Origin: Clostridia bacterium | Lineage (GTDB): Bacteria; Bacillota; Clostridia; Oscillospirales; Acutalibacteraceae | DNA length: 64,000 nt | Assembly: GCA_024404325.1 (NCBI GenBank) | Contig: JAKSQC010000001.1 | Location: 13,340 to 77,339, forward strand | Direction: 5' to 3' | Shown here: positions 17,900-41,569 of the stretch, in pieces | Numbering within the stretch: the first letter of the stretch is position 1 | Layout of the letters: each line of letters begins with the position of its first letter | Notes under the pieces: model-generated | Told to the model about the DNA's origin: nothing | Databases searched by the model: none | Seen by the model: the letters and a program-made list of their open reading frames with translations, nothing else | Program-made: the position numbers and the translations under genes

Positions 17900-17912
17900 A
17901 ATGCCAATCTCC

Positions 17913-22929: not shown

Positions 22930-22931
22930 CG

Positions 22932-24488: not shown

Positions 24489-24780
24489 TTTTCTCCGTTT
24501 CCGACAAGTTGTCAAGTGCTATTCTGTATCCGTTTGAGCCGTAGGTAAGGCAACGGTTTACCCTGCTGATAGTTGCAGTACTTACCCCCACCTTTTCGGC
24601 TATCTTTTGATAACTTAACCCCTCGTCTAAAAGTATAGCGGTATCAAAACGCTGTGCCATATCCTGAATTTCTTTTATGGTACACAAATCGTCAAAAAAC
24701 GCCTCACATTCTTTGGGTGTCTTTATATTCGATATTGCCTTGAAAAGCCTTTGTATTGACCTGTTTTGATAATTAGGCAT
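24472..24780 (-). CDS. TrpR-like YerC/YecD-family DNA-binding protein, first gene of the his operon (HisR-type candidate)
   Basis: 102 aa from ATG 24780 (SD GGGAG). It has the family-typical LCTIKEIQDMAQRF and YQKIAEKVGVSTATISRVNRCL helix-turn-helix. It overlaps the hisZG start by ~14 nt, suggesting translational coupling. Confidence 0.75.
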   Translation of the reverse strand: MPNYQNRSIQRLFKAISNIKTPKECEAFFDDLCTIKEIQDMAQRFDTAILLDEGLSYQKIAEKVGVSTATISRVNRCLTYGSNGYRIALDNLSETEKNDDGE

Positions 24781-26069: not shown

Positions 26070-26339
26070 ATTTTAAAGGCTATGACGAAGACGGCTTTGC
26101 TTTTTTATTCAAGAGAGCGGATGTTTGGTGCAAATTCCGTATAAAAAATCAAAACAGCCCATCACTTCCGAGCCGGATAGCTGAAAATCACAGTAGGCGT
26201 ATCCCGTGATTGCTGCGTAAAGGCATAAGGGTTGTCAGACCCTGAGTGGCAGTATTTACTGCAATTTGAGTGGTACCGCGAGTGTATGAATTTTTCCACA
26301 CCCGTCTCAAAGCAAATGTTTTGAGACGGGTGTTTTTTT
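26070..26339 (+). promoter_or_regulatory. T-box leader 1, specifier AUC (Ile)
   Basis: Stem I base GGCT/AGCC has K-turn TGA..GA, an AGAGAG bulge and a GGTGCAA distal loop. The specifier layout is ATC-A-CTTCC-GA-GCC, with ATC at 26161-26163. The T-box sequence AATTTGAGTGGTACCGCG lies at 26263-26280. The terminator CACCCGTCTCAAA/TTTGAGACGGGTG (26299-26332) is followed by T7. Confidence 0.9.
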
Positions 26340-26355
26340 GCAGGAGGACTTTAAA

Positions 26356-28623
26356 ATGTCGACAGTAAAATCAAACAAACTAATGGAAGTTGCAACACGT
26401 ATTCGTGAAATGCGTCAGATTTTCGGTTTTACCGAAGAAGAAATGGCACAAAAAACCGAAGTGACTTTAAGTGAATATCAAGACTATGAAACAGGAAAAC
26501 TTGATTTTCCTTTTACCTTTATTCATAAATGTTCTCTTGCTTTTGGAATAGGAATTACAGACCTGCTTGAGGGACAAAGTGCCCACCTTTCGTCATATAC
26601 GGTAACAAGAAAAGGTCAAGGTACGCAGACGGCGGAAGAAGACGGCATTGAAATACGCAACTTAGCACCAATGTTCCGTAATAAGATAGCAGAACCTTAT
26701 TGGGTTAAATATGAATATAGTAAAGAACTTCAAAACAAGCCAATTCATTTAACAAAACATTCGGGACAGGAATTTGACCTTGTACTCAAAGGCAGACTGA
26801 AAGTACAAGTAGGTGATAATATAGAGTATTTAAGCGAGGGTGACAGTATCTACTACAACAGTTCTACCCCTCACGGTATGATTGCGGTAGACGGGGAAGA
26901 ATGTTTGTTTGTAGCGGTAGTTCTCCCCGGTGCTAATCAGGAAGAAATACTTATAAGAGATACCCTGCTGACGTCAAAAAACCACAACAAGAAACTTGTC
27001 AGCGAAAAGTTTGTAAGTGTTAAGGAAAATCAGGACGGCTATCCTATATCCATTAACTTTAAGAATGAAGACAAATTTAATTTTGCATTTGATATAGTAG
27101 ACGAGATAGCGAAACGTGAGCCTGACAAACTTGCCTTACTTCACATTTCACAGGATAAAACCGAACGCAGATTTACTTTTAACGATATTAAACGTGCGTC
27201 CAATCAGTGTGCAAACTACTTTAAGTCACTCGGCATTAAAAAGGGTGACAGGGTAATGTTGGTACTCAAACGCCACTATGAATTTTGGTTTTCAATCATT
27301 GCACTTCATAAATTAGGTGCAATAGTAATACCCGCAACAAATCAACTTCAAAAGCACGATTTTGAATATAGATTTAAAGCGGCAGGAGTAAGTGCGATAG
27401 TATGCACTTCCGACGGCGATGTTGCAAATCAGGTTGACTTGGCGTCTGAAAACTACCCCCAACTCACAACAAAAATAATAGTGGGCACAAAAAGAGACGG
27501 TTGGCACAACCTAAAGGAAGAATACAACATTTACAGTGCACACTTTTACCGCACCGAAGATACCCCCTGCGGAAACGAGCCTATGCTTATGTTCTTCACT
27601 TCGGGTACTACGGGATATCCTAAAATTGCAACCCACACATATAAATACCCGTTAGGTCACTATTTAACGGCTAAATATTGGCACGGAGTAAGTGATGACG
27701 GACTTCACCTTACAATATCCGATACGGGTTGGGGTAAAGCGTTATGGGGTAAACTCTACGGTCAGTGGCTATGTGAGGGAGCAGTATTTGCCTATGACTT
27801 TGACCGTTTCGATGCAAGCGAGATACTTCCGATGTTTGCAAAATATCAAATAACAACATTTTGTGCGCCGCCGACAATGCTTAGAATGATGATAAAACAG
27901 GATATATCGCATTATGACTTTTCATCCGTAAAGCGTATGACAACGGCAGGTGAGGCACTTAATCCTGAGGTTTACCGTCAGTTTGAAAAGGCGACGGGAC
28001 TTCAAATTATGGAGGGTTTCGGTCAAACCGAAACCACGCTTACCGTTGCAAACTTTATGGGCGGTTCTCATAAATTAGGTTCTATGGGCAGACCGTCACC
28101 GCTTTATGATATAGATATTATAAATGCCGAGGGCAAAAGCGTTGCAGACGGTGAAACGGGCGAAATCGTAATACGAACAGACAAAGAAGTCCCCTGCGGA
28201 CTGTTTACGGGATACTATAAAGACGAGCAAAAGACAAAAGAGGTATGGCATGACGGATATTACCACACGGGTGATTCGGCGTGGCGTGACGAGGACGGAT
28301 ATTATTGGTACGTAGGTAGAGTTGACGACGTAATCAAGTCTTCGGGTTACAGAATAGGGCCGTTTGAAATTGAAAGCGTTATTATGGAACTGCCTTACGT
28401 TTTAGAGTGTGGAGTATCTGCCGCCCCCGACGAGGTAAGAGGACAGGTAGTAAAAGCAAGCATTGTTCTTGTAAACGGCACTAAGCCTTCAGAGGAACTT
28501 AAAAAGGAAATTCAAAATTACGTAAAAACCCATACTGCACCTTATAAATATCCGCGTATAGTCGAGTTCAAAGACAGTCTGCCTAAAACTGTTAGTGGAA
28601 AAATACAGAGAAATCTGTTATAA
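26356..28623 (+). CDS. Three-domain fusion: XRE HTH + cupin + AMP-forming (medium/short-chain) acyl-CoA synthetase
   Basis: ATG 26356 lies 8 nt after AGGAGG. Residues ~10-75 are HTH_3-like. Residues ~100-195 are a cupin (HSGQEFDLVLKG...GDSIYYNSSTPHGM). The remainder has adenylate-forming motifs FTSGTTGYPK, GFGQTE, YHTGD, GRVDDVIKSSGYRIGPFEIE and PKTVSGKIQR. Confidence 0.9.
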   Translation: MSTVKSNKLMEVATRIREMRQIFGFTEEEMAQKTEVTLSEYQDYETGKLDFPFTFIHKCSLAFGIGITDLLEGQSAHLSSYTVTRKGQGTQTAEEDGIEIRNLAPMFRNKIAEPYWVKYEYSKELQNKPIHLTKHSGQEFDLVLKGRLKVQVGDNIEYLSEGDSIYYNSSTPHGMIAVDGEECLFVAVVLPGANQEEILIRDTLLTSKNHNKKLVSEKFVSVKENQDGYPISINFKNEDKFNFAFDIVDEIAKREPDKLALLHISQDKTERRFTFNDIKRASNQCANYFKSLGIKKGDRVMLVLKRHYEFWFSIIALHKLGAIVIPATNQLQKHDFEYRFKAAGVSAIVCTSDGDVANQVDLASENYPQLTTKIIVGTKRDGWHNLKEEYNIYSAHFYRTEDTPCGNEPMLMFFTSGTTGYPKIATHTYKYPLGHYLTAKYWHGVSDDGLHLTISDTGWGKALWGKLYGQWLCEGAVFAYDFDRFDASEILPMFAKYQITTFCAPPTMLRMMIKQDISHYDFSSVKRMTTAGEALNPEVYRQFEKATGLQIMEGFGQTETTLTVANFMGGSHKLGSMGRPSPLYDIDIINAEGKSVADGETGEIVIRTDKEVPCGLFTGYYKDEQKTKEVWHDGYYHTGDSAWRDEDGYYWYVGRVDDVIKSSGYRIGPFEIESVIMELPYVLECGVSAAPDEVRGQVVKASIVLVNGTKPSEELKKEIQNYVKTHTAPYKYPRIVEFKDSLPKTVSGKIQRNLL

Positions 28624-28637
28624 TTTATAAAAAGGTC

Positions 28638-28666
28638 TTGACAAATTAAAAAAGCAGTGGTATTAT
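28638..28666 (+). promoter_or_regulatory. Sigma-A promoter P2 (drives T-box 2)
   Basis: TTGACA, 17 nt, then TATTAT preceded by TGG. It starts 15 nt after the ACS1 stop. Confidence 0.65.
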
Positions 28667-28672
28667 ATCACT

Positions 28673-28988
28673 TAATTAAAGACTTTGACGAAGAGTGTAT
28701 AAAAATACGTCCTATGCCAAAGCATTTAAACTTGAACTTGAATGTTTTGGCATCAGAGAAATGACGGTTGGTGCAAGTCATCGGAAACGGTTTTTATATT
28801 TGTAGCTTCCGAGTCGGGAAGAAGAACGGGCAAAACCTTAGTAGAACTTCTCCGTGATTGCTGCGTAAATGCATAAGGGTTGTCAGACCCTGAGTGGCAG
28901 TATTTACTGCAATTTGAGTGGTACCGCGGGTGTTTAAGATTATCACACTCGTCTCAAAGTTATCATTGCTTTGGGACGGGTGTTTTTG
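28673..28988 (+). promoter_or_regulatory. T-box leader 2, specifier GUA (Val)
   Basis: Stem I base GACT/AGTC has K-turn TGA..GA, an AGAGA bulge and a GGTGCAA loop. The specifier layout is GTA-G-CTTCC-GA-GTC, with GTA at 28802-28804. The T-box sequence lies at 28911-28928. The terminator (28947-28959 / 28969-28981) is followed by T5. Confidence 0.9.
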
Positions 28989-29015
28989 TATGTCCGTCCG
29001 GAAAGGTTGAGAAAT

Positions 29016-31313
29016 ATGGGACAAAATAACGGTCTTGATTTTAAAATCAAAGAAATGTCTTCAAGAATTCGCGAACTTCGTGAAATCACGGGTTATACAA
29101 CCGAAGAAATGGCGAAAAAGACCGACGTCAGCACCGAGGAATATATAAAATGCGAAAACGGGGAGGCAGACCTTAACTTTGCTTTTATTTACCGTTGTGC
29201 CATTGCCTTTGGTGTGAACGTTACCGATATTATTGAAGGTGTAAGCCCGACGCTTACTTCTTATACTCTTACAAGAAGCGGTCAAGGTCAAAAGATAGAC
29301 CAAGCACACGGAATGGTATACTATAATTTAGCGGCTGCTTTTCAAAACAGAATAGCAGAGCCTTTATACGTTTGCAGTGCATACAGTGAAGAGGCACAAC
29401 ATAAAGATATAGAGTTGACAACACATTCAGGACAGGAATGTGATATAGTAGTTTCAGGTCATCTTACGGTGCAGGTAGGCCGCCACAAGGAAACATTGGG
29501 ACCCGGCGACAGTATTTATTATGACAGTTCCACACCTCACGGTATGATTGCGGTAAACGGTGAAGACTGCATATTTTACGCAATAGTACTTAATCCTACG
29601 GGCGAGCCGATACCCGAACTTTCAAGTACGGTTGAAAATGTTACTTTAAAAGAAACAAAACCGTCCAAAAAGGATAATAAGGAAAGAATATACCGTAAGT
29701 TTATAGACACCGAGGTTGACGAAAACGGCACACCTACAAAAATAACGTTTAAAAATGAAGATAAGTTTAATTTTGCATTTGATTTGGTGGACGCACTTGC
29801 AGACCGCGAACCCGATAAACTTGCAATGCTTCATATATCAAGGGATATGACAGAACGCCGTTTTACCTTTAAAGATATAAAAAAGGCATCTAATCAGTGT
29901 GCTAACTATTTTAAGTCTTTGGGCATTAAAAAAGGTGACAGAGTAATGCTTTGTCTTAAGCGTCACTATCAATTCTGGTTCTGTATGTTAGGTCTTAATA
30001 AACTCGGTGCTGTTGCGATACCTGCCGTAAATCAGTTGCAGGAACACGATTTTGAGTACCGTTTTAAGTCTGCCGGTATAAGTGCGGTTATTTGTACTGC
30101 CGACGGCGACACTGCACATCAAATGGACTTGGCGGCGGAAAAATGTCCCGACCTTACGATAAAACTTATAGTAAACGGTACGCGTGAGGGTTGGAAAAAC
30201 TTTGACGAAGAATACCCCCTTTTCAGCACACATTTTAAAAGAACCGCCGATTCACCCTGCGGTAATGACACTATGATTATGTATTTTACGTCGGGTACTT
30301 CGGGTTATCCGAAAATCGCAACCCATTCTCATAAGTATCCTTTAGGGCATTTCCATACTGCAAAGTATTGGCATCACGTTGACCCTGACGGACTTCACCT
30401 TACAATATCCGATACCGGTTGGGCAAAGGCTATGTGGGGTAAACTTTACGGACAGTGGCTATGCGAGGCGGCAACCTTTGTTTATGACTTTGACCGTTTT
30501 GATGCAAGCGAAATACTGCCGATGTTCGCAAAGTATAATATTACTACTTTTTGTGCACCGCCTACAATACTCAGAATGATGGTTAAGCAGGATATATCAA
30601 AGTATGATTTTTCATCGGTAAAGCATATGACTACGGCGGGAGAGGCGCTTAACCCCGAAGTTTACCGTCAGTTCAAAAATGCTACGGGACTTAAAATTAT
30701 GGACGGTTTCGGTCAAACCGAATCGACTATGATTATAGGAAATCTTGTAGGTATGCAACATAAATTAGGCTCTATGGGTAAACCCGCACCTATTTATGAC
30801 GTTGACCTTATTGATGAAAACGGTAACACGGTAGCCGTAGGCGAAACAGGTGAAATTGTTATAAACGTTAAAAACGGTGCACCTTGCGGACTGTTTAAGG
30901 GTTATTATAAAGACGAAGAAAAAACCAAAGAGGTCTGGCACGACGGATATTACCACACGGGTGATTCTGCGTGGCGTGATGAGGACGGATACTATTGGTA
31001 CGTAGGCAGAGTTGACGACGTAATCAAGTCTTCGGGTTACAGAATAGGGCCGTTTGAAATCGAAAGTGTTATTATGGAACTGCCTTACGTTTTAGAGTGC
31101 GGCGTATCAGCCGCCCCCGACGAGGTAAGAGGACAGGTAGTAAAGGCAAGCATTGTTCTTGTAAACGGCACTAAGCCTTCAGAGGAACTTAAAAAGGAAA
31201 TTCAAACTTATGTTAAAACACATACCGCACCTTATAAATATCCTCGTATAGTAGAATTCCGCGACAGTCTGCCTAAGACGGTTACGGGTAAAATACAAAG
31301 GAACAAACTTTAA
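29016..31313 (+). CDS. Paralogous XRE HTH + cupin + AMP-forming acyl-CoA synthetase fusion
   Basis: Same three-domain order as 26356-28623. Has FTSGTSGYPK, GFGQTE and YHTGD. The C-terminal ~115 aa are identical to the paralog. The start is ATG 29016; the ORF track start 28971 lies inside the T-box terminator. Confidence 0.9.
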   Translation: MGQNNGLDFKIKEMSSRIRELREITGYTTEEMAKKTDVSTEEYIKCENGEADLNFAFIYRCAIAFGVNVTDIIEGVSPTLTSYTLTRSGQGQKIDQAHGMVYYNLAAAFQNRIAEPLYVCSAYSEEAQHKDIELTTHSGQECDIVVSGHLTVQVGRHKETLGPGDSIYYDSSTPHGMIAVNGEDCIFYAIVLNPTGEPIPELSSTVENVTLKETKPSKKDNKERIYRKFIDTEVDENGTPTKITFKNEDKFNFAFDLVDALADREPDKLAMLHISRDMTERRFTFKDIKKASNQCANYFKSLGIKKGDRVMLCLKRHYQFWFCMLGLNKLGAVAIPAVNQLQEHDFEYRFKSAGISAVICTADGDTAHQMDLAAEKCPDLTIKLIVNGTREGWKNFDEEYPLFSTHFKRTADSPCGNDTMIMYFTSGTSGYPKIATHSHKYPLGHFHTAKYWHHVDPDGLHLTISDTGWAKAMWGKLYGQWLCEAATFVYDFDRFDASEILPMFAKYNITTFCAPPTILRMMVKQDISKYDFSSVKHMTTAGEALNPEVYRQFKNATGLKIMDGFGQTESTMIIGNLVGMQHKLGSMGKPAPIYDVDLIDENGNTVAVGETGEIVINVKNGAPCGLFKGYYKDEEKTKEVWHDGYYHTGDSAWRDEDGYYWYVGRVDDVIKSSGYRIGPFEIESVIMELPYVLECGVSAAPDEVRGQVVKASIVLVNGTKPSEELKKEIQTYVKTHTAPYKYPRIVEFRDSLPKTVTGKIQRNKL

Positions 31314-31315
31314 TT

Positions 31316-31981
31316 ATGGAAAACTTTAAGCGTATTACCCTTTTGTGCGGTCACTACGGAAGCGGTAAAACAAATATCGCGGTCAATATGGCATACGAAC
31401 TTAAAAAGAAATATTCAAATGTTGCCATAGCCGACCTCGATATAGTAAACCCGTACTTTCGCACCAAGGACAGCATAAAAGAGTTTGAAAAAAGGGATAT
31501 AAAGTTAATTTGCTCAAAATATGCAGGCTCTAATGTAGATATACCCGCCCTCCCACAGGAGATGTATGCACTTACAGACGATAGGCAAATGCACTGTATA
31601 ATAGACGTCGGCGGGGACGACAGAGGTGCGTTGGCACTCGGTCGCCTATCCCCTGCAATAAAAGAAGAAAACGATTATGATATGCTTATGGTTATAAACT
31701 GTTACCGTCCGCTGACGCGTGACGTACCCTCAACCATAAATATTATGCGTGAAATAGAAACCGCTTCGGGTATTAAGTTTACAGGTCTTATAAACAACTC
31801 AAATTTAGGTAAGCTTACAACAAAGCAAACGGTTATCGATTCACTTAAATTTGCCGACGGTGTTTCAAAGGCTTCGGGACTTCCGATATTTTGCACCGCA
31901 GTAAAACAAGGTTTATTTGACAGAAAAGACGGCAGTTTAAAAAACGTCTTTCCGATAGAACTTCAAGAAAACATATACTGA
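31316..31981 (+). CDS. Uncharacterised SIMIBI-class P-loop NTPase (CooC/GPN-loop-like)
   Basis: 221 aa with Walker A GHYGSGKT, DLDIVNPYF, Walker-B-like IIDVGGDD and an NNSN block. It starts 2 nt after the ACS2 stop. Confidence 0.7.
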   Translation: MENFKRITLLCGHYGSGKTNIAVNMAYELKKKYSNVAIADLDIVNPYFRTKDSIKEFEKRDIKLICSKYAGSNVDIPALPQEMYALTDDRQMHCIIDVGGDDRGALALGRLSPAIKEENDYDMLMVINCYRPLTRDVPSTINIMREIETASGIKFTGLINNSNLGKLTTKQTVIDSLKFADGVSKASGLPIFCTAVKQGLFDRKDGSLKNVFPIELQENIY

Positions 31982-31996
31982 TAAGGAGCGATGAAT

Positions 31997-32203
31997 ATGG
32001 CAAAACTTAAGTTCAAAACAGATTTTTGTAAAGGTTGCGGACTGTGTGTAGACGCTTGTCCAAAAAAACTGTTAAAACTCGCAACCGACAAAATCAATAA
32101 AAAGGGACATCATCCGGCAGAAATAACCGATCAAGATTCCTGTACGGGTTGCACAAGTTGTGCAATAATGTGTCCGGACTGTGTAATAACGGTAGAAAGG
32201 TAA
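31997..32203 (+). CDS. 2-oxoacid:ferredoxin oxidoreductase delta subunit (2x[4Fe-4S] ferredoxin)
   Basis: Has CKGCGLCVDACP and CTGCTSCAIMCP motifs. ATG 31997 lies 8 nt after AGGAG. Confidence 0.85.
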   Translation: MAKLKFKTDFCKGCGLCVDACPKKLLKLATDKINKKGHHPAEITDQDSCTGCTSCAIMCPDCVITVER

Positions 32204-32211
32204 GTGAAATT

Positions 32212-33273
32212 ATGGCTGATAAAGTACTTATGAAAGGTAACGAAGCCTTAGCGGAAGCCGCAATATTAGCAGGTTGCCGTCACTACTTCGGTTATCCTAT
32301 CACCCCGCAGACAGAGGTTGCGGCTTATATGGCAAAAAAGATGCCGAAAATCGGCGGAACGTTTTTGCAGGCGGAAAGTGAAATTGCCGCTATAAATATG
32401 GTATACGGTGTTTCTTCGGCAGGTCACCGCGTTATGACATCATCTTCAAGCCCCGGAATTTCCTTAAAGGGCGAGGGAATATCATATCTTGCCGGTGCAG
32501 ACCTTCCTGCACTCGTAGTAAACGTACAGCGTGGGGGTCCGGGACTCGGAGGCATACAACCGAGCCAGTCCGACTATTTTCAGGCTACAAAGGGTGCCGC
32601 ACACGGCGACTTCCATATGATAGTATTAGCACCTGCATCTGTTCAGGAAATGGCAGAGCTGACCATTAAGGGATTTGAACTTGCAGACAAGTACAGAATG
32701 ACCTCTATGATTTTGGCAGACGGTACTATGGGACAGATGATGGAACCTGTTGACCTTGATTTTAAAATCACACCCGAACCCGAAAAGCCTTGGGCAACTA
32801 CGGGTACAAAACTCAAAAGAAATCATAACATAGTAAATTCTCTTTCCCTTGTTCCCGAAGAACTTGAACAACTCAATATAGCACGTTATGAGCGTTATAA
32901 GACGGTTGAAGAAAACGAATGTATGTATGAGGAATACTTAGTAGACGATGCCGATATAGTGCTTGTAGCATTCGGTATTACTTCGAGAGTTTCAAAACAC
33001 GCTATTGACAATGCAAGAGAACAAGGCGTAAAGGTCGGTCTTATCCGTCCCATTACCCTTTGGCCGTTCCCGAAAGCACCATTCCAAAAGGCAGTAGGAC
33101 ACGCCAAAGCATTTATAACGGTAGAACTTAATATGGGACAGATGATAGAGGACGTTAAACTTGCAACTAATTGTAAGGTTCCGGTACATCTTTGTAACCG
33201 TGTAGGCGGTATGATTCCTGACCATACACAGGTATATGATAAAATTATGGAAATCAACGAGGAGGTAAAATAA
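32212..33273 (+). CDS. 2-oxoacid:ferredoxin oxidoreductase alpha subunit (VorB/KorA-like)
   Basis: Has N-terminal KGNEALAEAAILAGCRHYFGYPITPQTE and MTSSSSPGISL. The start is ATG 32212; the ORF track start 32149 overlaps the delta gene. Confidence 0.88.
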   Translation: MADKVLMKGNEALAEAAILAGCRHYFGYPITPQTEVAAYMAKKMPKIGGTFLQAESEIAAINMVYGVSSAGHRVMTSSSSPGISLKGEGISYLAGADLPALVVNVQRGGPGLGGIQPSQSDYFQATKGAAHGDFHMIVLAPASVQEMAELTIKGFELADKYRMTSMILADGTMGQMMEPVDLDFKITPEPEKPWATTGTKLKRNHNIVNSLSLVPEELEQLNIARYERYKTVEENECMYEEYLVDDADIVLVAFGITSRVSKHAIDNAREQGVKVGLIRPITLWPFPKAPFQKAVGHAKAFITVELNMGQMIEDVKLATNCKVPVHLCNRVGGMIPDHTQVYDKIMEINEEVK

Positions 33274-33275
33274 CT

Positions 33276-34028
33276 ATGGTAGTATTTGAAAAACCGCACG
33301 CACTTACCGACGTGCCTTTACACTATTGCCCCGGTTGTACTCACGGTATCGTACATAGGCTCGTTGCCGAAGCAATCGACGAACTCGGAATTGAGGGACA
33401 GACAATAGGTATAGCACCCGTTGGTTGTTCGGTAATGGCTTACGATTACTTTAACTGCGATATGATAGAAGCCGCTCACGGACGTGCACCGGCAGTGGCA
33501 ACAGGCGTTAAAAGAGCCGACCCCGATAATCACATAGTATTTACCTATCAGGGCGACGGTGACCTTGCTTCCATAGGTATGGCTGAAACCGTACACGCAG
33601 CGGCAAGAAATGAAAATATAACCGTTATTTTTATAAACAATGCAATTTACGGTATGACAGGCGGTCAGATGGCACCTACTTCCCTGCCCGGTCAGGTTAC
33701 ACAGACTTCTCCTTACGGCAGAGATACATCCCACTGCGGTTATCCTATTAGGGTTTGCGAAATGCTCGCAACATTAGAAGGACCCGAGTATCTTGAAAGG
33801 GTAACCGTAAATAATGTTGCTAACGTACGCAAAGCAAAAAAGGCCATTAAAAAGGCTTTCCAAAACCAAATAGATAAAAAAGGTTTTTCACTAATAGAGG
33901 TTGTATCTTCCTGTCCTACCAACTGGGGTATGACACCGCAAGACGCACTTAAGTGGATAGACGATAATATGCTTCCATATTATCCTCTTGGCGTTTATAA
34001 AGACCGTTCTGCAAAGGAGGAAAAGTAA
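33276..34028 (+). CDS. 2-oxoacid:ferredoxin oxidoreductase beta subunit (TPP-binding)
   Basis: Has a CPGCTHG cluster ligand block and the GDGDLASIG...NNAIYGMTGGQ TPP motif. Confidence 0.88.
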   Translation: MVVFEKPHALTDVPLHYCPGCTHGIVHRLVAEAIDELGIEGQTIGIAPVGCSVMAYDYFNCDMIEAAHGRAPAVATGVKRADPDNHIVFTYQGDGDLASIGMAETVHAAARNENITVIFINNAIYGMTGGQMAPTSLPGQVTQTSPYGRDTSHCGYPIRVCEMLATLEGPEYLERVTVNNVANVRKAKKAIKKAFQNQIDKKGFSLIEVVSSCPTNWGMTPQDALKWIDDNMLPYYPLGVYKDRSAKEEK

Positions 34029-34570
34029 TGAAACTTCCAATACAGTGCTTATTTTCAGGCTTTGGCGGACAGGGTATCCTGTTTTCCGGCAAATTTATGG
34101 CATATAAGGGTATGATTGAGGATAAATTTGTATCATGGCTTCCTTCCTACGGTCCCGAAATGCGTGGCGGTACCGCAAGTTGCAGTGTGGTTATAAGCGA
34201 TAGGGAGATTGCATCTCCCATTATTTCAACACCCGATATTTTGGTTGCAATGAATTTACCGTCACTTGATAAGTACGAAAAAATCGTAAAAAAAGGCGGT
34301 ACAATATTTGTTGACTCAACCCTTATCGAAAGAAAGGTTGAAAGGGACGATGTAAACGTATATTATGTCCCTGCAACCAAACTTGCAAGCGATAATAATA
34401 TGCCGACTCTTGCAAATATGATACTTGTCGGTAAAATATTAAAGGTAAGAAATGAATATTCAGAAGAAAGTGTCCGTGCGGCTCTTACAAAGGTAGTTTC
34501 CGCAAAACACGCCGATTTGCTTGAAGTCAATATGAAAGCAATGCAAATAGGTGCTTCTTACGAGGAATAA
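34028..34570 (+). CDS. 2-oxoacid:ferredoxin oxidoreductase gamma subunit
   Basis: 180 aa with GFGGQGILFSGK and YGPEMRGG blocks. Its ATG overlaps the beta stop (ATGA-type junction). Confidence 0.85.
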   Translation: MKLPIQCLFSGFGGQGILFSGKFMAYKGMIEDKFVSWLPSYGPEMRGGTASCSVVISDREIASPIISTPDILVAMNLPSLDKYEKIVKKGGTIFVDSTLIERKVERDDVNVYYVPATKLASDNNMPTLANMILVGKILKVRNEYSEESVRAALTKVVSAKHADLLEVNMKAMQIGASYEE

Positions 34571-34589
34571 CAAGAAAGGAATTATTGCT

Positions 34590-35651
34590 ATGAATATCAG
34601 AGTTGAAAACACACAGCATCCGTCATCAATGCCGGGTAGTGAATTTGGATTCGGCAGAATTTTTTCAGACCATATGTTTATGATGGACTACAATGCAAAC
34701 GAGGGTTGGCATGATGCAAGAATAGTCCCGTTTGGAAGACTTTCCATTCACCCTGCTTCCACCGTACTTCACTACGGTGCAGAGATATTTGAGGGACTTA
34801 AGGCATACCGCCGTCCCGATGGCGGAGTACAACTTTTCAGACCTATTGAAAATATCCGCCGTATGAATGATTCGGCAGAGCGTTTGTGCTTACCGCAAAT
34901 TCCCGAAGATGAAGCTATGGAAATACTCACCACATTTATCAGTCACGAAAAGGAGTGGACACCGTCAGCCCCTGGAACAACACTTTACATTCGTCCTTTC
35001 CTGTTCGGTAACGATGAATCACTCGGCGTACACGCAGTGAAGAACGCTACTTTCGTAATTATTGCATCACCTACGGGAAGTTATTATAAAGAGGGCTTTA
35101 AGCCGGTACGCATTATGATTGAAGATGAGGACGTAAGAGCAGTACGAGGCGGTACGGGTTATGCTAAATGCGGAGGTAACTACGCAGCAAGCACACGTGC
35201 AGGAGAGAGAGCCGAACAGATGGGTTATTCTCAAGTACTTTGGCTTGACGGTGTTGAGCGTAAGTACATAGAGGAAGTAGGAGCAATGAACGTTATGTTC
35301 AAAATAAACGGCGAAATCGTTACTCCTAAACTTACAGGCTCAATACTCCCCGGTATTACAAGAAAGTCCTGTATTGAACTTTTAAGAAGCAAGGGTTATA
35401 AGGTTTCAGAGCGTCTGCTCAGTCTCCAAGAACTCGTAAGTGCTATGACTGACGGCACACTCGAGGAAGCTTGGGGTTGCGGAACAGCGGCAGTAGTATC
35501 ACCTATCGGTGAGCTTTGCTATAAAGATATTAAGTACGCTATCAACGGCGGTAAAATCGGTGAGCTCACACAAAGCCTTTACGATACCCTTACGGGTATA
35601 CAGTTTGGCAGAAGTGAAGACCCGTTCGGTTGGACTGTTCGTATAGACTAA
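34590..35651 (+). CDS. ilvE: Branched-chain amino acid aminotransferase (long, ~350-aa type)
   Basis: Has FGRIFSDHMF, YGAEIFEGLKAYR, GGTGYAKCGGNYAAS, EEVGAMNVMF and PGITR blocks. Confidence 0.9.
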   Translation: MNIRVENTQHPSSMPGSEFGFGRIFSDHMFMMDYNANEGWHDARIVPFGRLSIHPASTVLHYGAEIFEGLKAYRRPDGGVQLFRPIENIRRMNDSAERLCLPQIPEDEAMEILTTFISHEKEWTPSAPGTTLYIRPFLFGNDESLGVHAVKNATFVIIASPTGSYYKEGFKPVRIMIEDEDVRAVRGGTGYAKCGGNYAASTRAGERAEQMGYSQVLWLDGVERKYIEEVGAMNVMFKINGEIVTPKLTGSILPGITRKSCIELLRSKGYKVSERLLSLQELVSAMTDGTLEEAWGCGTAAVVSPIGELCYKDIKYAINGGKIGELTQSLYDTLTGIQFGRSEDPFGWTVRID

Positions 35652-35665
35652 TCATTTAAAAAGAC

Positions 35666-35694
35666 TTGACATATAATGATTTATGTGGTATAGT
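35666..35694 (+). promoter_or_regulatory. Sigma-A promoter P3 (drives T-box 3)
   Basis: TTGACA, 17 nt, then TATAGT preceded by TGG. It starts 15 nt after the ilvE stop. Confidence 0.65.
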
Positions 35695-35700
35695 TATTAA

Positions 35701-35975
35701 AAATTTCAAATGCATTGATGGAATTATTCCTTTTTTGTATGTCTATTTCAGAGAGCCGTCGGTTGGTGCAAGACGGAAAGGCTTTAAAGGGAAGTCTCAT
35801 TTCGGAGCAGAACTGCCTGAAATTTTAGTAAGCAGTTCCGGTTTGACCCCGTTACCGTGGTCAAGGGCTTGTTTGAGCCTATTTAAGTTGACCGTTTATT
35901 CGGTAAACAGGGTGGTACCGCGGATTAAATTATTCGTCCCTGAAACTGATGTATTTCAGTTTCAGGGATTTTTTG
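35701..35975 (+). promoter_or_regulatory. T-box leader 3, specifier CUC (Leu)
   Basis: Stem I base TGC/GCA has K-turn TGA..GA, an AGAGAG bulge and a GGTGCAA loop. The specifier layout is CTC-A-TTTC-GGA-GCA, with CTC at 35796-35798. The T-box sequence GGGTGGTACCGCGG lies around 35908-35922. The terminator TCCCTGAAACTGA/TCAGTTTCAGGGA (35937-35968) is followed by T6. Confidence 0.9.
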
Positions 35976-35996
35976 TTTTAAAAGGATTGGTGACTT

Positions 35997-37376
35997 ATGA
36001 ATAATATTAAAATTTCAGATTTAACTCTTTGTCTTGTAAGCAGTGATTTGACATTTAAGGAAAAAATAGAAATTGCAAGACAACTTGAAAAGTTACAACT
36101 TGACTGCATTGAACTTCCCGAAATCAAAAAGGTTAAATCTGATACCCTTTTTATACGCACTGTTTCTTCTTTTCTTAAAAACAGTATACTTTCGGTTTGT
36201 GCGGGAAGCAGTATAGAGAGTATAGACAATGCCGTTACGGCACTTAGTGTATGCAAAAAGCCGATGATAAGAATAGAACTTCCGGTATCAACTGTAAGAA
36301 TGGAATATGATTTTCATAAAAAAGCACCAAAAATGCTCGAATGGATAAATAAAACCGTTTGCTATGCTTCGCAAAAATGTGACGTTGAGTTTTGTGCACT
36401 TGATGCCACAAGAGCCGAGTCTGAATTTTTAATTGAAGCACTGAAAACCGCAGAGTCGGCAGGTGCAAAGATAATAACCGTTTGCGATGATGCAGGCGAA
36501 ATGCTTACCGATGAATTTACCGAATTTATAAAGCGTATAAAGAGCAATATATCAACGCCGATATACATTAACTGTAATAATAAAAACGGTATGGCACTTT
36601 CCCTTGCGGCTATTTCAATAAAGAACGGCGATGCACAAGGTGTTAAGACTTCGGTAAACGGTGACACCGTAAGTTTAGAGAATATATCAACTTTTATAAG
36701 AAACTGCGGAGAAAAACACAGTATAATATCAAATATAAGATACACAGAACTTTACCGTACTATCTCCCAAATCAAACGTATTACGGGAAATGTTACTGAA
36801 AGCAATGAAAAGACCGTATCCACAGTTACTTCAAACGATGAAATAAAACTCGATAAAAATGATGACAAAAACACCGTAATCACAATGGTGGCAAGACTCG
36901 GTTATGACCTTTCAAAAGAGGATGAAGACAATGTTTATGAGCAGTTTTTGCGTGTAGCCGATAAAAAGACAGTCGGAGCAAAGGAACTTGATGCGATAGT
37001 AATCAGTTCTGCTTTACAAGTACCGCCCACCTATAAACTTGATAATTATATAGTAAACAGCGGTAATTCTATTTCCTCAAGTGCACAGGTAACGCTTAAA
37101 CACTTTGACAGTGTAACTCAAGGCATAAGCATAGGCGACGGACCTATTGACGCCGCATTTTTGGCTATTGAGCAGATAATAGGTTGTCACTACGATTTAG
37201 AGGACTTCCAAATTCAAACCGTAACCGAGGGCAAAGAGGCAATCGGTTCTGCAATAATCAAACTGCGTTCGGCAGGTAAAATATATTCAGGCAACGGCAT
37301 TTCAACCGATATAATAGAGGCAAGCATAAGGGCGTACTTAAACGCACTTAACAAAATTGCCTACGAGGAGGTATAA
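35997..37376 (+). CDS. 2-isopropylmalate synthase-like protein with degenerate active site (pseudoenzyme) and intact LeuA C-terminal regulatory domain
   Basis: It is colinear with LeuA along its whole length, but the catalytic motifs are replaced: DTTLRDGEQ becomes DLTLCLVSS, HCHNDLG becomes NCNNKNG, and GIGERAGN becomes NGDTVSLEN. The C-terminus (GDGPIDAAFLAIEQI..., ISTDIIEASIRAYLNALNK) matches the LeuA_dimer/allosteric domain. Confidence 0.8.
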   Translation: MNNIKISDLTLCLVSSDLTFKEKIEIARQLEKLQLDCIELPEIKKVKSDTLFIRTVSSFLKNSILSVCAGSSIESIDNAVTALSVCKKPMIRIELPVSTVRMEYDFHKKAPKMLEWINKTVCYASQKCDVEFCALDATRAESEFLIEALKTAESAGAKIITVCDDAGEMLTDEFTEFIKRIKSNISTPIYINCNNKNGMALSLAAISIKNGDAQGVKTSVNGDTVSLENISTFIRNCGEKHSIISNIRYTELYRTISQIKRITGNVTESNEKTVSTVTSNDEIKLDKNDDKNTVITMVARLGYDLSKEDEDNVYEQFLRVADKKTVGAKELDAIVISSALQVPPTYKLDNYIVNSGNSISSSAQVTLKHFDSVTQGISIGDGPIDAAFLAIEQIIGCHYDLEDFQIQTVTEGKEAIGSAIIKLRSAGKIYSGNGISTDIIEASIRAYLNALNKIAYEEV

Positions 37377-37378
37377 CG

Positions 37379-39916
37379 GTGAAATTTTCTTTTTCCACAA
37401 AGGGTTGGCATAACTGTACCTTTGAAGATTTTGTAAGAATTGCAAATGAGCTTCAGTTTCAGGGTATAGAACTGCATAACATCCATAACGAGGCATTTAC
37501 CAAAAAAGGCGGTGCTTTACACGATTATACTGCGGCGGCTACTTTGCGTTATTTAAAAGAAAAAAATCTTTCACTGCCGTGTGTTGATGCGATAGGCGAC
37601 ATTGCAAGTGCCGACAGTGCTGATAATTTAAAGCAGGAAATTTCGCAGTGTATAGAGGTTGCATCACATCTTAAAATTTCATATATAAGGCTAAAGGCGG
37701 AAAAAAGTGACGATATAGATACTGCTACCAAAAACGTAATAAACCTTTTAGAGCAGATGCTACCCATCGCCGAGCAGGAAAATATCACTTTTCTTATTGA
37801 AACTTCTGGACTTTTTGCAAGTTCACTTAAACTCAGGGATATACTCGAATATTTTGCATGTGATAATTTGGCGGCTTTATGGAATTTATCCGATGCTTAT
37901 TTTGAAGCAGGAGAGAGTGCAGAAGAAATAATAAAGAATTTAGGTGCTTATGTACGCCACGTTCACGTAAACGATGCCGTTAAAACCGAAAACGGTACAA
38001 ATTACTGTCTTTTAGGCGAGGGAGAAGTTCCGTTTGAAGAAATTATGCTTGCCTTAAAATCGGTTAATTATGACGGCTTTTTATCGCTTGTATGGGACCC
38101 TGCTTGGTGCGAGGAACTTGACGATATTGAAATACTGTTTTCACAGTTTACAAATTATATGAAGCAGTTTGGCACAACCTACCGCAGGAATAAAACACTT
38201 TATTATAACAAGGCACGCACAGGCGAATTTGTATGGAAAAAAGACCTGCTTATAGACGAAACGTTTTCGCAGGTTCTTGACAGAATGGTTGAGGAATTCC
38301 CCGACCAATATGCCTTTAAGTATACAACACTTGATTACACAAGGACATATTCACAATTCCGTGATGATGTAAATACCTTTGCAAGAGCGTTAGTTGCACT
38401 CGGTGTTAAAAGCGGTACACACGTAGCGGTTTGGGCATCAAATGTACCGCAGTGGTATATAGCCTTTTGGGCGACGGTAAAGTTAGGTGCGGTTCTTGTA
38501 ACGGTAAATACCGCATACAAAATTCACGAGGTAGAGTATCTTTTAAAGCAGTCTGATACGCATACAATAATTATGACGCAGGGTGCTAAAGATACAAACT
38601 ACGGTGAAATTATTGCACAGCTTTGTCCTGAACTTGAAAACAAGAAACCATCTGGGCACCTCCACGCACGCAAACTGCCGTTTTTGAGAAATGTTATTAC
38701 CGTGGGATTTCGTCAAAAGGGTTGCCTTATGTGGAATGATGCATTAGAATTTTCATCACAGGTATCGCTTGAAACGGTAAACCGTATGGCAGATAGTGTA
38801 AATCATAATGACGTATGCAATATGCAGTATACTTCGGGTACAACGGGATTTCCTAAGGGCGTTATGCTGACGCATTATAATATAGTAAATAACGGTAAAT
38901 GTATAGGCGACCGTATGGACTTATCAACTGCTGACAGAATGATGGTACAAGTGCCTATGTTCCACTGTTTTGGAATGGTACTTGCAATGACGGCTACTAT
39001 GACGCACGGCGGTACGCTTTTACCTCTGCCCTATTTCTCACCGAAACCCGCACTTTCCTGTATAAACAACGAAAGAATAACGGCATTTCACGGTGTTCCC
39101 ACAATGTTTATAGCCCTCCTTGAGCACCCCGACTTTGCAAAAACCGACTTTTCTTATATGCGTACGGGAATTATGGCAGGAAGTCCGTGTCCTATTTCTG
39201 CTATGCGTGACGTTATTGATAAAATGAATATGCGTGACATAACAATAGTTTACGGTCAGACCGAAGCCTCCCCCGGTTGTACTATGAGTTCTACCGATGA
39301 TTCCATAGAGATAAGGGTGGGTACTGTCGGCAGACCTCTGCCAGAAATTGAATGTAAGATAGTAGACCCCGAAACGGGAGAAGAATGTCCTATAGGTGTT
39401 ACGGGTGAGTTTATAGCACGCGGTTATAATATAATGAAAGGCTATTATAAAATGCCTAAGGCCACAGCATCTGCCATTGACGCTAAAGGTTGGCTTCACA
39501 CCGGCGACCTTGCCTGCAAAACCGAGGACGGCAACTTCCGTATTACGGGCAGACTTAAAGATATGATAATAAGGGGCGGAGAAAATATCTATCCAAAGGA
39601 AATAGAGGAATTTATTTATACGCATAAAAAGGTCAGTGACGTTCAGGTTGTAGGCGTTCCCGACGAGCAGTACGGCGAGGAAATTTTAGCCTGCATTATA
39701 TTAAAAGAAAACGAGCAAATGACCGTTGATGAGATGAAAACGTATATTGCGGAAAATATGGCACGTCATAAAGTACCGAAATATATTGAGTTTGTGTCCG
39801 AATTTCCGATGAACGCCGCAGGCAAAATTTTGAAATATAAAATAAGAGAGGATGCTGTTAAAAAGTTGGGTTTAAACGCAAACGACAGCATAGTTATGGA
39901 CAATGGTAAACGGTAA
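37379..39916 (+). CDS. Fusion of xylose-isomerase-like TIM barrel (AP_endonuc_2-type) with a FadD-like AMP-forming acyl-CoA ligase
   Basis: Uses a GTG start 7 nt after GAGGAGG. The N-terminal ~270 aa are TIM-barrel-like (GIELHN..., IRLKA..., FLIETSG, HVHVND, SLVWDP). The C-terminal ~560 aa carry YTSGTTGFPKGV, VYGQTE, LHTGDL and GRLKDMIIRGGENIYPKEIE. Confidence 0.85.
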   Translation: MKFSFSTKGWHNCTFEDFVRIANELQFQGIELHNIHNEAFTKKGGALHDYTAAATLRYLKEKNLSLPCVDAIGDIASADSADNLKQEISQCIEVASHLKISYIRLKAEKSDDIDTATKNVINLLEQMLPIAEQENITFLIETSGLFASSLKLRDILEYFACDNLAALWNLSDAYFEAGESAEEIIKNLGAYVRHVHVNDAVKTENGTNYCLLGEGEVPFEEIMLALKSVNYDGFLSLVWDPAWCEELDDIEILFSQFTNYMKQFGTTYRRNKTLYYNKARTGEFVWKKDLLIDETFSQVLDRMVEEFPDQYAFKYTTLDYTRTYSQFRDDVNTFARALVALGVKSGTHVAVWASNVPQWYIAFWATVKLGAVLVTVNTAYKIHEVEYLLKQSDTHTIIMTQGAKDTNYGEIIAQLCPELENKKPSGHLHARKLPFLRNVITVGFRQKGCLMWNDALEFSSQVSLETVNRMADSVNHNDVCNMQYTSGTTGFPKGVMLTHYNIVNNGKCIGDRMDLSTADRMMVQVPMFHCFGMVLAMTATMTHGGTLLPLPYFSPKPALSCINNERITAFHGVPTMFIALLEHPDFAKTDFSYMRTGIMAGSPCPISAMRDVIDKMNMRDITIVYGQTEASPGCTMSSTDDSIEIRVGTVGRPLPEIECKIVDPETGEECPIGVTGEFIARGYNIMKGYYKMPKATASAIDAKGWLHTGDLACKTEDGNFRITGRLKDMIIRGGENIYPKEIEEFIYTHKKVSDVQVVGVPDEQYGEEILACIILKENEQMTVDEMKTYIAENMARHKVPKYIEFVSEFPMNAAGKILKYKIREDAVKKLGLNANDSIVMDNGKR

Positions 39917-40709
39917 ACTTTTTGTTATTGATGCACACTGCCACGTCTACCCCGATAAAATTGCAACCATAGCATCGGGCAATACCGACCGTTTTTACGA
40001 TACAGTATCTAAACACGATGGCAAGGTGGGTACGCTCCTTGATTTAAAAGAGGAAAGCGGTATAGACCGCTTTTTGGTGCAGTCAGTAGCAACCACGCCG
40101 AAACAGGTACAAAGAATAAATCAGTTTATTGCCGATACCGTAAATAACAGTAACGGTATTATGACGGGACTTGGTACTCTCCACCCTGACAGTGCAGATT
40201 TAAAGGCGGACGTAATGCAAATAAAGCAACTTGGTCTTCACGGGGTAAAACTGCACCCCGATATCCAACAGTTTAAAATTGATGATTACAGATGTCTTAA
40301 AATTTATGAACTCTGCGAGCAGGAAAATTTACCTGTTCTTATGCACACGGGTGACAACAGATATGATTTTTCCAATCCAAACCGTCTTTTACCCGTTATA
40401 AAAATATTTGATAAATTAACCCTTGTAGCCGCCCATCTCGGCGGATATTCGGTGTGGGAAGAAGCAGTACAAAAACTTGCAGGTATTAAAAATCTGTATT
40501 TTGACTGTTCATCATCATTTTTTTGGTTAAACCCAAAACGTGCAAAGGAGATAATTGAAATTTACGGTACTGACCGTGTATTATTCGGAAGTGACTATCC
40601 GATGTGGTCGCCCAAAGCAGAACTTGATACCTTGTTATCTCTTGGCTTTGGCGATGATGATTTAAAGATGATTTTATCTGAAAATGCTAAAAAAATTTAT
40701 AATATTTAA
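39903..40709 (+). CDS. Amidohydro_2-family metal-dependent TIM-barrel enzyme (hydrolase/decarboxylase superfamily)
   Basis: Has IDAHCHVYP (HxH), LHPD, MHTGD, AHLGG and FGSDYP. It overlaps the upstream gene by 14 nt. Confidence 0.8.
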   Translation: MVNGKLFVIDAHCHVYPDKIATIASGNTDRFYDTVSKHDGKVGTLLDLKEESGIDRFLVQSVATTPKQVQRINQFIADTVNNSNGIMTGLGTLHPDSADLKADVMQIKQLGLHGVKLHPDIQQFKIDDYRCLKIYELCEQENLPVLMHTGDNRYDFSNPNRLLPVIKIFDKLTLVAAHLGGYSVWEEAVQKLAGIKNLYFDCSSSFFWLNPKRAKEIIEIYGTDRVLFGSDYPMWSPKAELDTLLSLGFGDDDLKMILSENAKKIYNI

Positions 40710-40726: not shown

Positions 40727-41569
40727 ATGAGAAAGTATAAATCAATCACTTTATATTTAATTGTTGCTCTTATGCTTTTATGCCTTTGCGGGTGCAGAAA
40801 AACAAGCACTTCCAATTTAAGTTGTGAAAGCAGTTATCCGTCTATAACATCATCACAAGAAAGCGAAGAAGAACAGACGGAAGAATCGGCACCCGAAAGT
40901 ACACAGGTTTCGGCATCGGTTCAAGAAAACACATCTTCTGCATCTTCTGCATCTTCGGCACAAAAAACACCTGCCAAACCAAAAACCAATCCAAACCCCT
41001 ATCTTCTTAAAGTCAACCGTACACAAAATCTTGTAATTGCATATTCAAAAGACGGAAACGGTGAATATACCGTTCCGGTAAGGGCTATGATATGTTCTGT
41101 CGGTTTAAACGGTGACACTCCTACAGATACATATAAAACACAAAACAAATACGTTTGGCGTCCGCTCATAGGCAATGTTTACGGTCAGTACGCTACAAGA
41201 ATTACGGGAAGTATACTTTTTCACTCGGTGCCATACAGTTCACAAAATAAATCTACTCTTGATTACAATGAGTACAATAAGCTTGGCAGTTCTGCTTCGC
41301 ACGGTTGCGTGAGAATGACGGTAGAAGATGCTAAATGGATATACGATAACTGCCCGCTTGGTACTACCGTAATAATCTATGACAGCAATGCTCCCGAGCC
41401 TCTTGCAAAGCCATCGGCACAAAAAATCGACCCGTCAAGTCCAATGTGTGGTTGGGACCCGACAGACCCTGACCCTGCAAATCCGTGGAAAAATACAACA
41501 CCCGCTCCAAAAGAACCTGAAACCGAACCGCAACAGGAAATAACAGAAGAAACAGAGCAAACAGAATAA
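40727..41569 (+). CDS. L,D-transpeptidase (YkuD domain) lipoprotein
   Basis: Has a signal peptide with lipobox LCLCGC, an S/E/Q-rich linker, and a YkuD catalytic block FHSVP...SHGCVRM. Confidence 0.85.
   Translation: MRKYKSITLYLIVALMLLCLCGCRKTSTSNLSCESSYPSITSSQESEEEQTEESAPESTQVSASVQENTSSASSASSAQKTPAKPKTNPNPYLLKVNRTQNLVIAYSKDGNGEYTVPVRAMICSVGLNGDTPTDTYKTQNKYVWRPLIGNVYGQYATRITGSILFHSVPYSSQNKSTLDYNEYNKLGSSASHGCVRMTVEDAKWIYDNCPLGTTVIIYDSNAPEPLAKPSAQKIDPSSPMCGWDPTDPDPANPWKNTTPAPKEPETEPQQEITEETEQTE

Follow-up and report, generated by a model that had tools for sequence, protein, structure and literature searches.

We analysed a 64,000-nucleotide stretch of contig JAKSQC010000001.1 from a Clostridia bacterium of the family Acutalibacteraceae (hereafter the window, in whose positions all coordinates are given) and focused on a T-box leader that is followed by four co-directional open reading frames (ORFs) of 459, 845, 268 and 280 aa. 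The first encodes a protein derived from 2-isopropylmalate synthase (LeuA), the second a fusion of a xylose-isomerase-like TIM barrel with an acyl-CoA ligase, the third a metal-dependent TIM-barrel enzyme of the Amidohydro_2 family and the fourth a YkuD protein. The fusion gene is one unbroken ORF (37379–39916, +) with a GTG start. The stop codon of the LeuA-like gene lies 2 nt upstream of this GTG, and the Shine-Dalgarno sequence of the fusion (GAGGAGG) is located within the final codons of the LeuA-like gene. At the other end, the Amidohydro_2 gene (39903–40709, +, start ATG) overlaps the 3′ end of the fusion by 14 nt (39903–39916). Profile hidden Markov models assigned three Pfam families to the 845-aa protein, each well above its cut-off: AP_endonuc_2 at aa 20–238 (75.6 bits; cut-off 31.1), AMP-binding at aa 301–690 (315.5 bits; cut-off 29.9) and AMP-binding_C at aa 741–816 (64.5 bits; cut-off 24.5). 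The TIM barrel, supported by Pfam, an AlphaFold2 (AF2) model and column frequencies, covers aa 1–265 (37379–38173, +), and the AMP-forming acyl-CoA synthetase domain, supported by Pfam, NCBIfam and PDB homologues, aa ~277–845 (38207–39916, +).

Relatives of the TIM domain were collected by a pattern scan covering one genome per GTDB species, and at least 585 of the 600 stretches examined were confirmed. The locus comparisons reported here used mainly the best 80 of these at least 585 relatives (54–66% identical), supplemented by the distant loci L082–L086. Nearly all of the best 80 belong to metagenome-assembled genomes of Acutalibacteraceae, Oscillospiraceae and Ruminococcus from ruminant and other guts. 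Another homologue (P0163) comes from a cultured Ruminococcus isolate. Among them, a complete fusion ORF was present in 62 other species-level genomes, with lengths of 706–845 aa (median 835 aa). The identical protein and gene order were also found on an independently assembled Logan contig. Furthermore, the linker between barrel and ligase is conserved, and wherever a database homologue of the TIM domain reaches past the domain, it runs on into this linker and the ligase. The independent assembly, the orthologues and the conserved continuation into the ligase thus establish the fusion as a conserved gene and not an artefact. The LeuA-like gene stands immediately upstream of the fusion in all 71 loci with enough sequence, and the Amidohydro_2 gene immediately downstream in 51 of 55 close loci; the pair of LeuA-like gene and fusion is invariant in Oscillospirales gut and rumen genomes.

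These results agree with much of what an earlier note on this DNA, made from the letters alone, had described: a leucine T-box over the genes, a TIM barrel and a ligase in one 845-aa protein, a 14-nt overlap with the next gene, the HxH, H, H and D ligands of an Amidohydro_2 enzyme, and a third ligase of a subfamily different from that of two others nearby. Two of the checks it had named, domain delineation by profile models and conservation of the genome context, both bore the arrangement out. Its gene set stood as far as the fusion, the Amidohydro_2 gene and the T-box are concerned, but it had overlooked the first gene of the T-box operon, the 459-aa LeuA-like ORF.

The leader itself is well defined. 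A sigma-70-type promoter (TTGACA-17-TATAGT with TG; 35666–35694, +; 11 of 12 matches) ends 12 nt upstream of a full-length match to the Rfam T-box model (RF00230, model positions 1–219; 35706–35944, +; 111.6 bits, gathering threshold 93), which takes in Stem I, specifier loop and antiterminator T-box sequence, and the T-box is closed by an intrinsic terminator (35936–35979, +) consisting of a hairpin with a 14-bp stem (35936–35969) and a T-run. The specifier reads CUC, a leucine codon (35796–35798), in the context GAAGU-CUC-A, i.e., with a purine after the codon. The bulge that pairs with the tRNA acceptor end reads UGGU (35913–35916); a UGGN bulge is expected to pair with the discriminator A73 of tRNA-Leu. 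We found no convincing plus-strand terminator between the leader and position 40709. In the comparison set, 62 of the 73 loci that could be evaluated have a T-box motif ahead of the LeuA-like gene; the 19 T-boxes that Rfam detected among them were all confirmed. The aligned specifier codon was CTC in 48 loci and CTG in six, four further CTC codons were recognised by eye, and the distant locus L084 carries CTG, so that every locus read has a Leu codon. Such swaps between two synonymous Leu codons at the specifier are good evidence for sensing of tRNA-Leu. Since the conserved specifier indicates that the leader senses this tRNA, the operon is predicted to respond to leucine limitation through the T-box. 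Leucine T-boxes also stand ahead of ilv-leu operons in Firmicutes. Two candidates within the window were rejected: the tRNA gene considered as a partner of the T-box encodes an unrelated tRNA-Ser(GGA), and a 112-aa TTG-start ORF (35666–36004, +), which covers promoter, T-box and terminator and which gene callers might annotate, lacks a Pfam match and is spurious.

The first gene behind the leader (35997–37376, +) encodes the 459-aa LeuA-derived protein, in which an eroded HMGL-like barrel (92.5 bits) is combined with an intact LeuA_dimer domain (103.6 bits). The protein failed all NCBIfam LeuA equivalogs, reaching 257 of the 532 bits required by the best of them (NF002086) and 232.9 of the 598.7 bits required by TIGR00973. 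Pairwise alignment with E. coli LeuA (RefSeq) located the damage. The motif DTTLRDGEQ is changed to DLTLCLVSS (R to C, D to L, E to S, Q to S) and accompanied by a four-residue deletion, HTHDD has become NCNNK (HxH to NxN), the Glu of EDAGR is replaced by Leu, and the segment SGIHQDG...G, which contributes a catalytic His of the E. coli enzyme, is deleted. The former metal positions, HxH included, vary among 74 LeuA-like orthologues. The regulatory domain, by contrast, retains the GxGPxDA and TDI motifs, and its identity across orthologues amounts to 69% vs 49% for the barrel, with 40% vs 16% near-invariant columns. A search of this domain against PDB sequences returned nothing useful. Erosion of the active site is graded among clades, L082 keeping R, E, Q and one His, and L084 only the Arg. 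The protein clearly descends from a real LeuA, of which it is predicted to be a catalytically dead paralogue. As the catalytic residues are lost and the LeuA_dimer domain is far better conserved than the barrel, the pattern appears to be the signature of a pseudoenzyme kept for its regulatory domain. In true LeuA this domain binds leucine, and the LeuA-like protein is probably a non-catalytic, possibly leucine-sensing, partner or subunit. Public labels for the family (P0249, P0253, P0287, P0291) clash, NCBI naming it "hypothetical protein" and JGI "2-isopropylmalate synthase"; judged by its residues, the latter label would wrongly credit genomes with a functional LeuA.

By its domains and motifs, the C-terminal part of the fusion is assigned to the AMP-forming acyl-CoA synthetases of the ANL superfamily. 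All core motifs could be read in the translation and aligned to PDB ligases, namely the A3 P-loop YTSGTTGFPKGV, A5 YGQTE, A7 HTGDL, the A8 hinge GRLKDMIIRGGENIYP and A10 AAGKILK with the catalytic Lys, and they are at least 98% conserved in 63 orthologues. The best NCBIfam model is PRK12583 (aa 290–832, 685.5 bits), whereas the two other ligases, encoded upstream, match MbcS at 443–452 bits and are only ~25% identical to the fusion ligase. No other part of the operon is as constrained as the ligase: its mean identity among close orthologues is 78% (77.7%) vs 58% for the TIM domain, 62–65% of its columns are near-invariant (at least 95% conserved), and it holds 67–71% identity in clades where the TIM domain falls to 33–42%.

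The TIM barrel shows a different picture. Its AF2 model is confident (mean predicted local distance difference test score, pLDDT, 91), and Foldseek matched it to AsbF, Art22, UlaE, IolI and ketose 3-epimerases with template modelling (TM) scores of 0.74–0.79 at only 13–22% identity, so that the fold search singled out no functional subfamily. In alignments to MJ1311 and Art22, the canonical Asp corresponds to N169 and the second of the canonical Glu residues to V238; the site of the window protein hence reads E141, N169, H194 and V238 in place of Glu-Asp-His-Glu, with two of the four ligands lost. Among 63 orthologues, E141 is present in 62 and H194 is invariant, while position 169 is N in 34, D in 21, H in four and Q in four, and position 238 is V in 40, E in 17 and I in six. 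The two positions covary, with E238 occurring only together with D169, and both ligands are lost in 42 of 63. In some two thirds of the family, among them the window protein, the classical metal and catalytic site has thus been taken apart as one unit. As the domain has been kept despite this and evolves faster than the ligase, the data argue for a mainly structural or regulatory role of the barrel in this lineage.

The Amidohydro_2 protein (268 aa; 110 bits, cut-off 26.4), in contrast, looks intact. Its metal ligand set HxH/H/H/H/D is complete (H12, H14, H118, H148, H178, D231), and 52 orthologues show no variation at D10, H12, H14, H94, H118, H148, H178, D201 and D231. The AF2 model (pLDDT 93) superimposes on family structures with TM scores of 0.72–0.79; it comes closest in fold to decarboxylases of aromatic acids and to two uncharacterised proteins, BB4693 (3irs) and CAC3332 (3cjp), all of them 14–21% identical, and again the fold search singled out no functional subfamily. 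On these grounds the protein is probably an active metalloenzyme. Its gene is missing from four of the 55 close loci (L015, L021, L027 and L028) and from the distant L082, L083 and L084, and for this reason it is accessory and not a core step. The "additional chemistry" that the earlier note had read into the two partners of the ligase is thus doubtful for the TIM barrel, in view of N169 and V238, the losses in 42 of 63 orthologues and its fast evolution, and is not part of the core in the case of the Amidohydro_2 enzyme, whose active site nevertheless appears sound.

Directly upstream of the leader lies another operon (26338–35651, +; assigned by Pfam and NCBIfam), which encodes two HTH-Cupin-MbcS-like ligases, a P-loop protein, the alpha, beta and gamma subunits of a 2-oxoacid:ferredoxin oxidoreductase (VOR) and the branched-chain aminotransferase IlvE. 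The same block directly precedes the LeuA-like, fusion and Amidohydro_2 genes (hereafter the trio) in ~30 other loci. In ~10 loci only 22–170 nt and no T-box separate IlvE from the LeuA-like gene, and the trio is part of that operon. The LeuA-like/fusion pair is kept in L082, L083 and L084, where the TIM domain is 33–42% identical, and its linkage to VOR is kept in L082 and L084; the tie to VOR holds at TIM identities of 33–45%. Still more distant TIM-ligase fusions were found in L085 (270–2792) and L086 (161–3700), with 28–31% identity in the TIM domain and 47–59% in the ligase; no LeuA-like gene or T-box was seen in these two loci within 160–269 nt of upstream sequence. Downstream of the L086 fusion come a protein with a 2-oxoacid_dh acyltransferase domain and then HTS.

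The two MbcS-like ligases of the upstream operon are paralogous proteins of 761 and 780 aa (26338–28623 and 28971–31313, +) composed of HTH_3/HTH_19, Cupin_2 and MbcS-like acyl-CoA synthetase domains, an architecture that recurs in ~29 related loci and in L084. With HTH-Cupin modules on this pair and a TIM barrel on the third, all three ligases carry N-terminal add-on domains. Between the ligases and VOR, a 221-aa P-loop protein with weak CbiA/ParA/MinD-like matches (31316–31981, +) is shared by 28 loci and may serve VOR in maturation or in the delivery of Fe-S clusters. A separate ferredoxin-like delta subunit of VOR was not seen in the window, and in L082 and L084 VOR alpha is preceded by a Fer4 gene.

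Taken together, these observations led us to favour, with modest confidence, a model of T-box-controlled isovalerate activation that feeds leucine synthesis by VOR and IlvE, its substrate and its regulation both being deduced from sequence. Uncharged tRNA-Leu would cause read-through of the T-box. The ligase would then convert isovalerate, ATP and CoA into isovaleryl-CoA, the shared VOR would carboxylate this product reductively to 4-methyl-2-oxopentanoate, and IlvE would transaminate the oxoacid to leucine. That the fusion ligase is the leucine-specific isovalerate-CoA ligase of such a reductive-carboxylation route we regard as probable, if by no great measure. Three points make isovalerate, proposed from regulation and context only, the most economical choice of substrate for this ligase: all specifiers read are Leu codons (CUC or CUG, the distant clade included), the operon stands behind, or is fused into, a ligase-VOR-IlvE operon, and the characterised MbcS, which accepts 2-methylbutyrate and isobutyrate, handles isovalerate poorly (PMC10026030). 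Because VOR and IlvE are common to all three branched-chain acids, activation of the acid is the sole step that can be specific for leucine; as the only such step of the proposed route, the ligase alone would be placed under leucine-specific control. Incorporation of isovalerate into leucine by ruminococci has long been known (Allison 1962, cited in PMC7356843).

The remaining parts of the model are weaker. The LeuA-like protein would make isopropylmalate no more and survive as a leucine-binding regulatory subunit, the TIM domain would be mainly a structural or docking module and not an isomerase, and the Amidohydro_2 protein would serve as an accessory hydrolase, lactonase or decarboxylase. 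Tentatively, the dead LeuA might be a leucine sensor that acts on the ligase, which would recall how feedback inhibits the de novo pathway at its first committed step. A little more tentative still is the idea that it is an allosteric subunit which shuts the ligase at high leucine and docks via the degenerate TIM barrel. If true, the reductive-carboxylation (salvage) pathway would have taken over a de novo feedback module at its first committed step, and two layers of leucine control, T-box and allostery, would have been made from two pseudoenzyme barrels.

Several observations weigh against the isovalerate model. The NCBIfam model closest to the ligase is PRK12583, which describes a "fatty acid CoA ligase" in generic terms and was matched below its cut-off. 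The full E-D-H-E set of the TIM barrel is kept in 17 of 63 orthologues and in the distant clade, and E31, H33, D70, E141, H194, D199 and E214 are (near-)invariant polar residues of this domain, which may thus still have a catalytic role through residual or different chemistry. The three steps from isovalerate to leucine leave the fully intact and tightly coupled Amidohydro_2 enzyme unexplained. Finally, in 13 loci without upstream VOR (L031 (5402–8491), L037, L039, L045, L053, L054, L063, L064, L065, L067, L069, L071 and L075), the Amidohydro_2 gene is translationally coupled, with gaps of −14 to +6 nt, to metY (Cys_Met_Meta_PP, O-acetylhomoserine sulfhydrylase type), and metA (HTS) comes next in ten of the 13, the other three contigs ending first. 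HTS is also nearby in L084 and L086. Rfam found no riboswitch between the Amidohydro_2 and met genes in the five of the 13 loci that were scanned, and the methionine genes of the metY/metA loci appear to be co-transcribed from the Leu T-box, which the three-step model does not predict. Leucyl-tRNA synthetase (LeuRS) edits homocysteine, and on the strength of this editing and of the metY/metA coupling one may speculate that the Amidohydro_2 protein hydrolyses homocysteine thiolactone or homoserine lactone.

The best-surviving alternative, to which we give a minor but real share of probability, holds that the operon encodes a multi-step route in which the TIM barrel, the Amidohydro_2 enzyme or both convert a compound with a leucine skeleton (e.g., a lactone, an unsaturated or hydroxy acid, or a carboxylated precursor) into the acid used by the ligase, or process its product. 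Fused domains often catalyse consecutive steps, the barrel keeps E141, H194 and other invariant polar residues along with all four ligands in the 17 orthologues mentioned, and the complete, invariant ligand set of the Amidohydro_2 enzyme and its translational coupling to the ligase would fit as well. However, the TIM domain of the window lacks two ligands, among them the one that corresponds to a catalytic Glu in the epimerases; 42 of 63 orthologues have lost this ligand pair and retained the domain, which evolves about twice as fast as the ligase. Moreover, the LeuA-like/fusion pair persists where the Amidohydro_2 gene is absent, i.e., in the four close loci and in L082, L083 and L084 (with VOR linkage in L082 and L084), and the neighbouring genes point to no candidate substrate.

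We consider it unlikely that the acyl-CoA made by the ligase serves a process other than leucine synthesis, such as the priming of iso-odd fatty acids, with the T-box and the LeuA-like gene as leftovers of an ilv-leu operon. The descent of the LeuA-like protein from a real leuA product is compatible with a leader inherited in this way, and L085 and L086 lack both elements in the short upstream sequence available. Yet the T-box and its synonymous Leu specifiers are conserved down to 42% identity of the TIM domain, which argues for a maintained function, and the linkage to VOR and IlvE, direct operon fusion included, points to amino-acid synthesis. Less credible again is the idea that the LeuA-like protein has stayed catalytic by means of a re-invented site (e.g., at conserved Cys12/Cys163) and acts on the acyl-CoA product of the ligase. 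LeuA-family enzymes do bind acyl-CoA, and the barrel conserves C12 (61 of 74), C163 (57 of 74), D136-A-T-R139 and D164; all known residues for Claisen condensation and metal binding are replaced, though, the HxH positions vary, the SGIHQDG subdomain has been lost, no part of the operon is less conserved than the barrel (49%), and erosion graded by clade, with L082 still holding R, E, Q and one His, is typical of decay and not of redesign. That two separate genes had been joined by a frameshift or an assembly artefact, raised in the earlier note as a possible refutation, is ruled out for all practical purposes by the identical ORF in the independent assembly, the 62 complete orthologous fusions of 706–845 aa and the conserved linker, and nothing was found in its favour.

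It has been recognised since the 1960s that Clostridia of the rumen and gut, ruminococci among them, require branched-chain volatile fatty acids and form leucine from isovalerate. Assignment of genes and regulation to this route has so far been poor, and the T-box operon offers a specific candidate for its leucine-specific step. It occurs in hundreds of uncultured Oscillospirales species of livestock guts, a setting in which "isoacid" supplementation is practised, and the Leu T-box that marks it provides a clean regulatory handle. The locus is also an unusually clear case of pseudoenzyme recycling, with a dead LeuA and a decaying isomerase-type barrel beside a highly conserved ligase. Pipeline labels such as "AMP-binding protein", "hypothetical protein" or, wrongly, "2-isopropylmalate synthase" would mislead reconstructions of leucine prototrophy.

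Some other features of the window were recorded in passing. The fourth ORF behind the T-box (40727–41569, +; 280 aa) encodes a YkuD L,D-transpeptidase whose N-terminus resembles that of a lipoprotein and whose linker is rich in Ser, Glu and Pro, and there is no terminator between it and the Amidohydro_2 gene. It adjoins the trio in no other locus, was rejected as a member of the system and is probably unrelated. On the minus strand, a 527-aa ORF (22932–24515) joins HisZ-like (tRNA-synt_His) and HisG (ATP phosphoribosyltransferase) domains within a complete his operon (17252–24515), and a 640-aa ORF (51001–52923) unites GerAC-type (Spore_GerAC_N, Spore_GerAC) with GerAB-type (Spore_permease) domains and adjoins a GerA gene (52920–54410).

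No description of the TIM-ligase architecture or of the gene arrangement was found in PDB, in NCBIfam names or in the literature searched, which covered the cluster, isovalerate-CoA ligases, YngI and genes of branched-chain fatty-acid auxotrophy, and each component is best compared with its nearest known relatives. With the ANL enzyme MbcS (S. aureus MbcS; NCBIfam NF047394), two relatives of which are encoded in the adjoining operon, the fusion shares the proposed job of converting an exogenous branched short-chain acid into its CoA ester at the expense of ATP. It differs in belonging to another ligase subfamily and in carrying an N-terminal TIM barrel instead of an HTH-Cupin module or nothing, and its product would be carboxylated reductively on the way to an amino acid, whereas MbcS serves fatty-acid priming. 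The "fatty acid CoA ligase family protein" PRK12583 is the best model for the ligase part and shares all core motifs; the fusion stays below its 832-bit cut-off and differs by the extra 270-aa N-terminal domain, the Leu T-box and the LeuA-like partner. The TIM barrel has the fold of AsbF (a 3-dehydroshikimate dehydratase), UlaE, IolI and the ketose 3-epimerases, and its E141 and H194 align with two of their metal ligands, but low identity, N169 and V238 in the window, fusion to a ligase and the lack of a sugar-metabolism context set it apart.

The Amidohydro_2 protein shares fold and HxH...H...H...D site with members of PF04909 such as LigW, gamma-resorcylate decarboxylase, ACMSD, IDCase, 3irs and 3cjp. 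At 268 aa it is shorter than the decarboxylases (320–380 aa) and nearest in size to 3irs and 3cjp, and unlike the decarboxylases it has no aromatic-acid context. True LeuA has the same two Pfam domains as the LeuA-like protein, with GxGPxDA and TDI in common, and a Leu T-box as in the leaders of Firmicute ilv-leu operons. The LeuA-like protein, in turn, is ~60 aa shorter, lacks the substrate Arg, the metal Asp, the Glu/Gln, both metal His and SGIHQDG, and always stands beside an acyl-CoA ligase and not beside leuBCD. Similarly, the ilv-leu operons of Bacillus and other Firmicutes place a Leu-specifier T-box with terminator and antiterminator before a leuA-type gene, while the leader described here is followed by a predicted dead leuA, a ligase fusion and an amidohydrolase in place of leuABCD. 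Ligase chemistry of this kind and the physiology leading from isovalerate to leucine are thus known already; what is new is the TIM-ligase architecture, its obligate dead-LeuA partner and their wiring to a leucine T-box.

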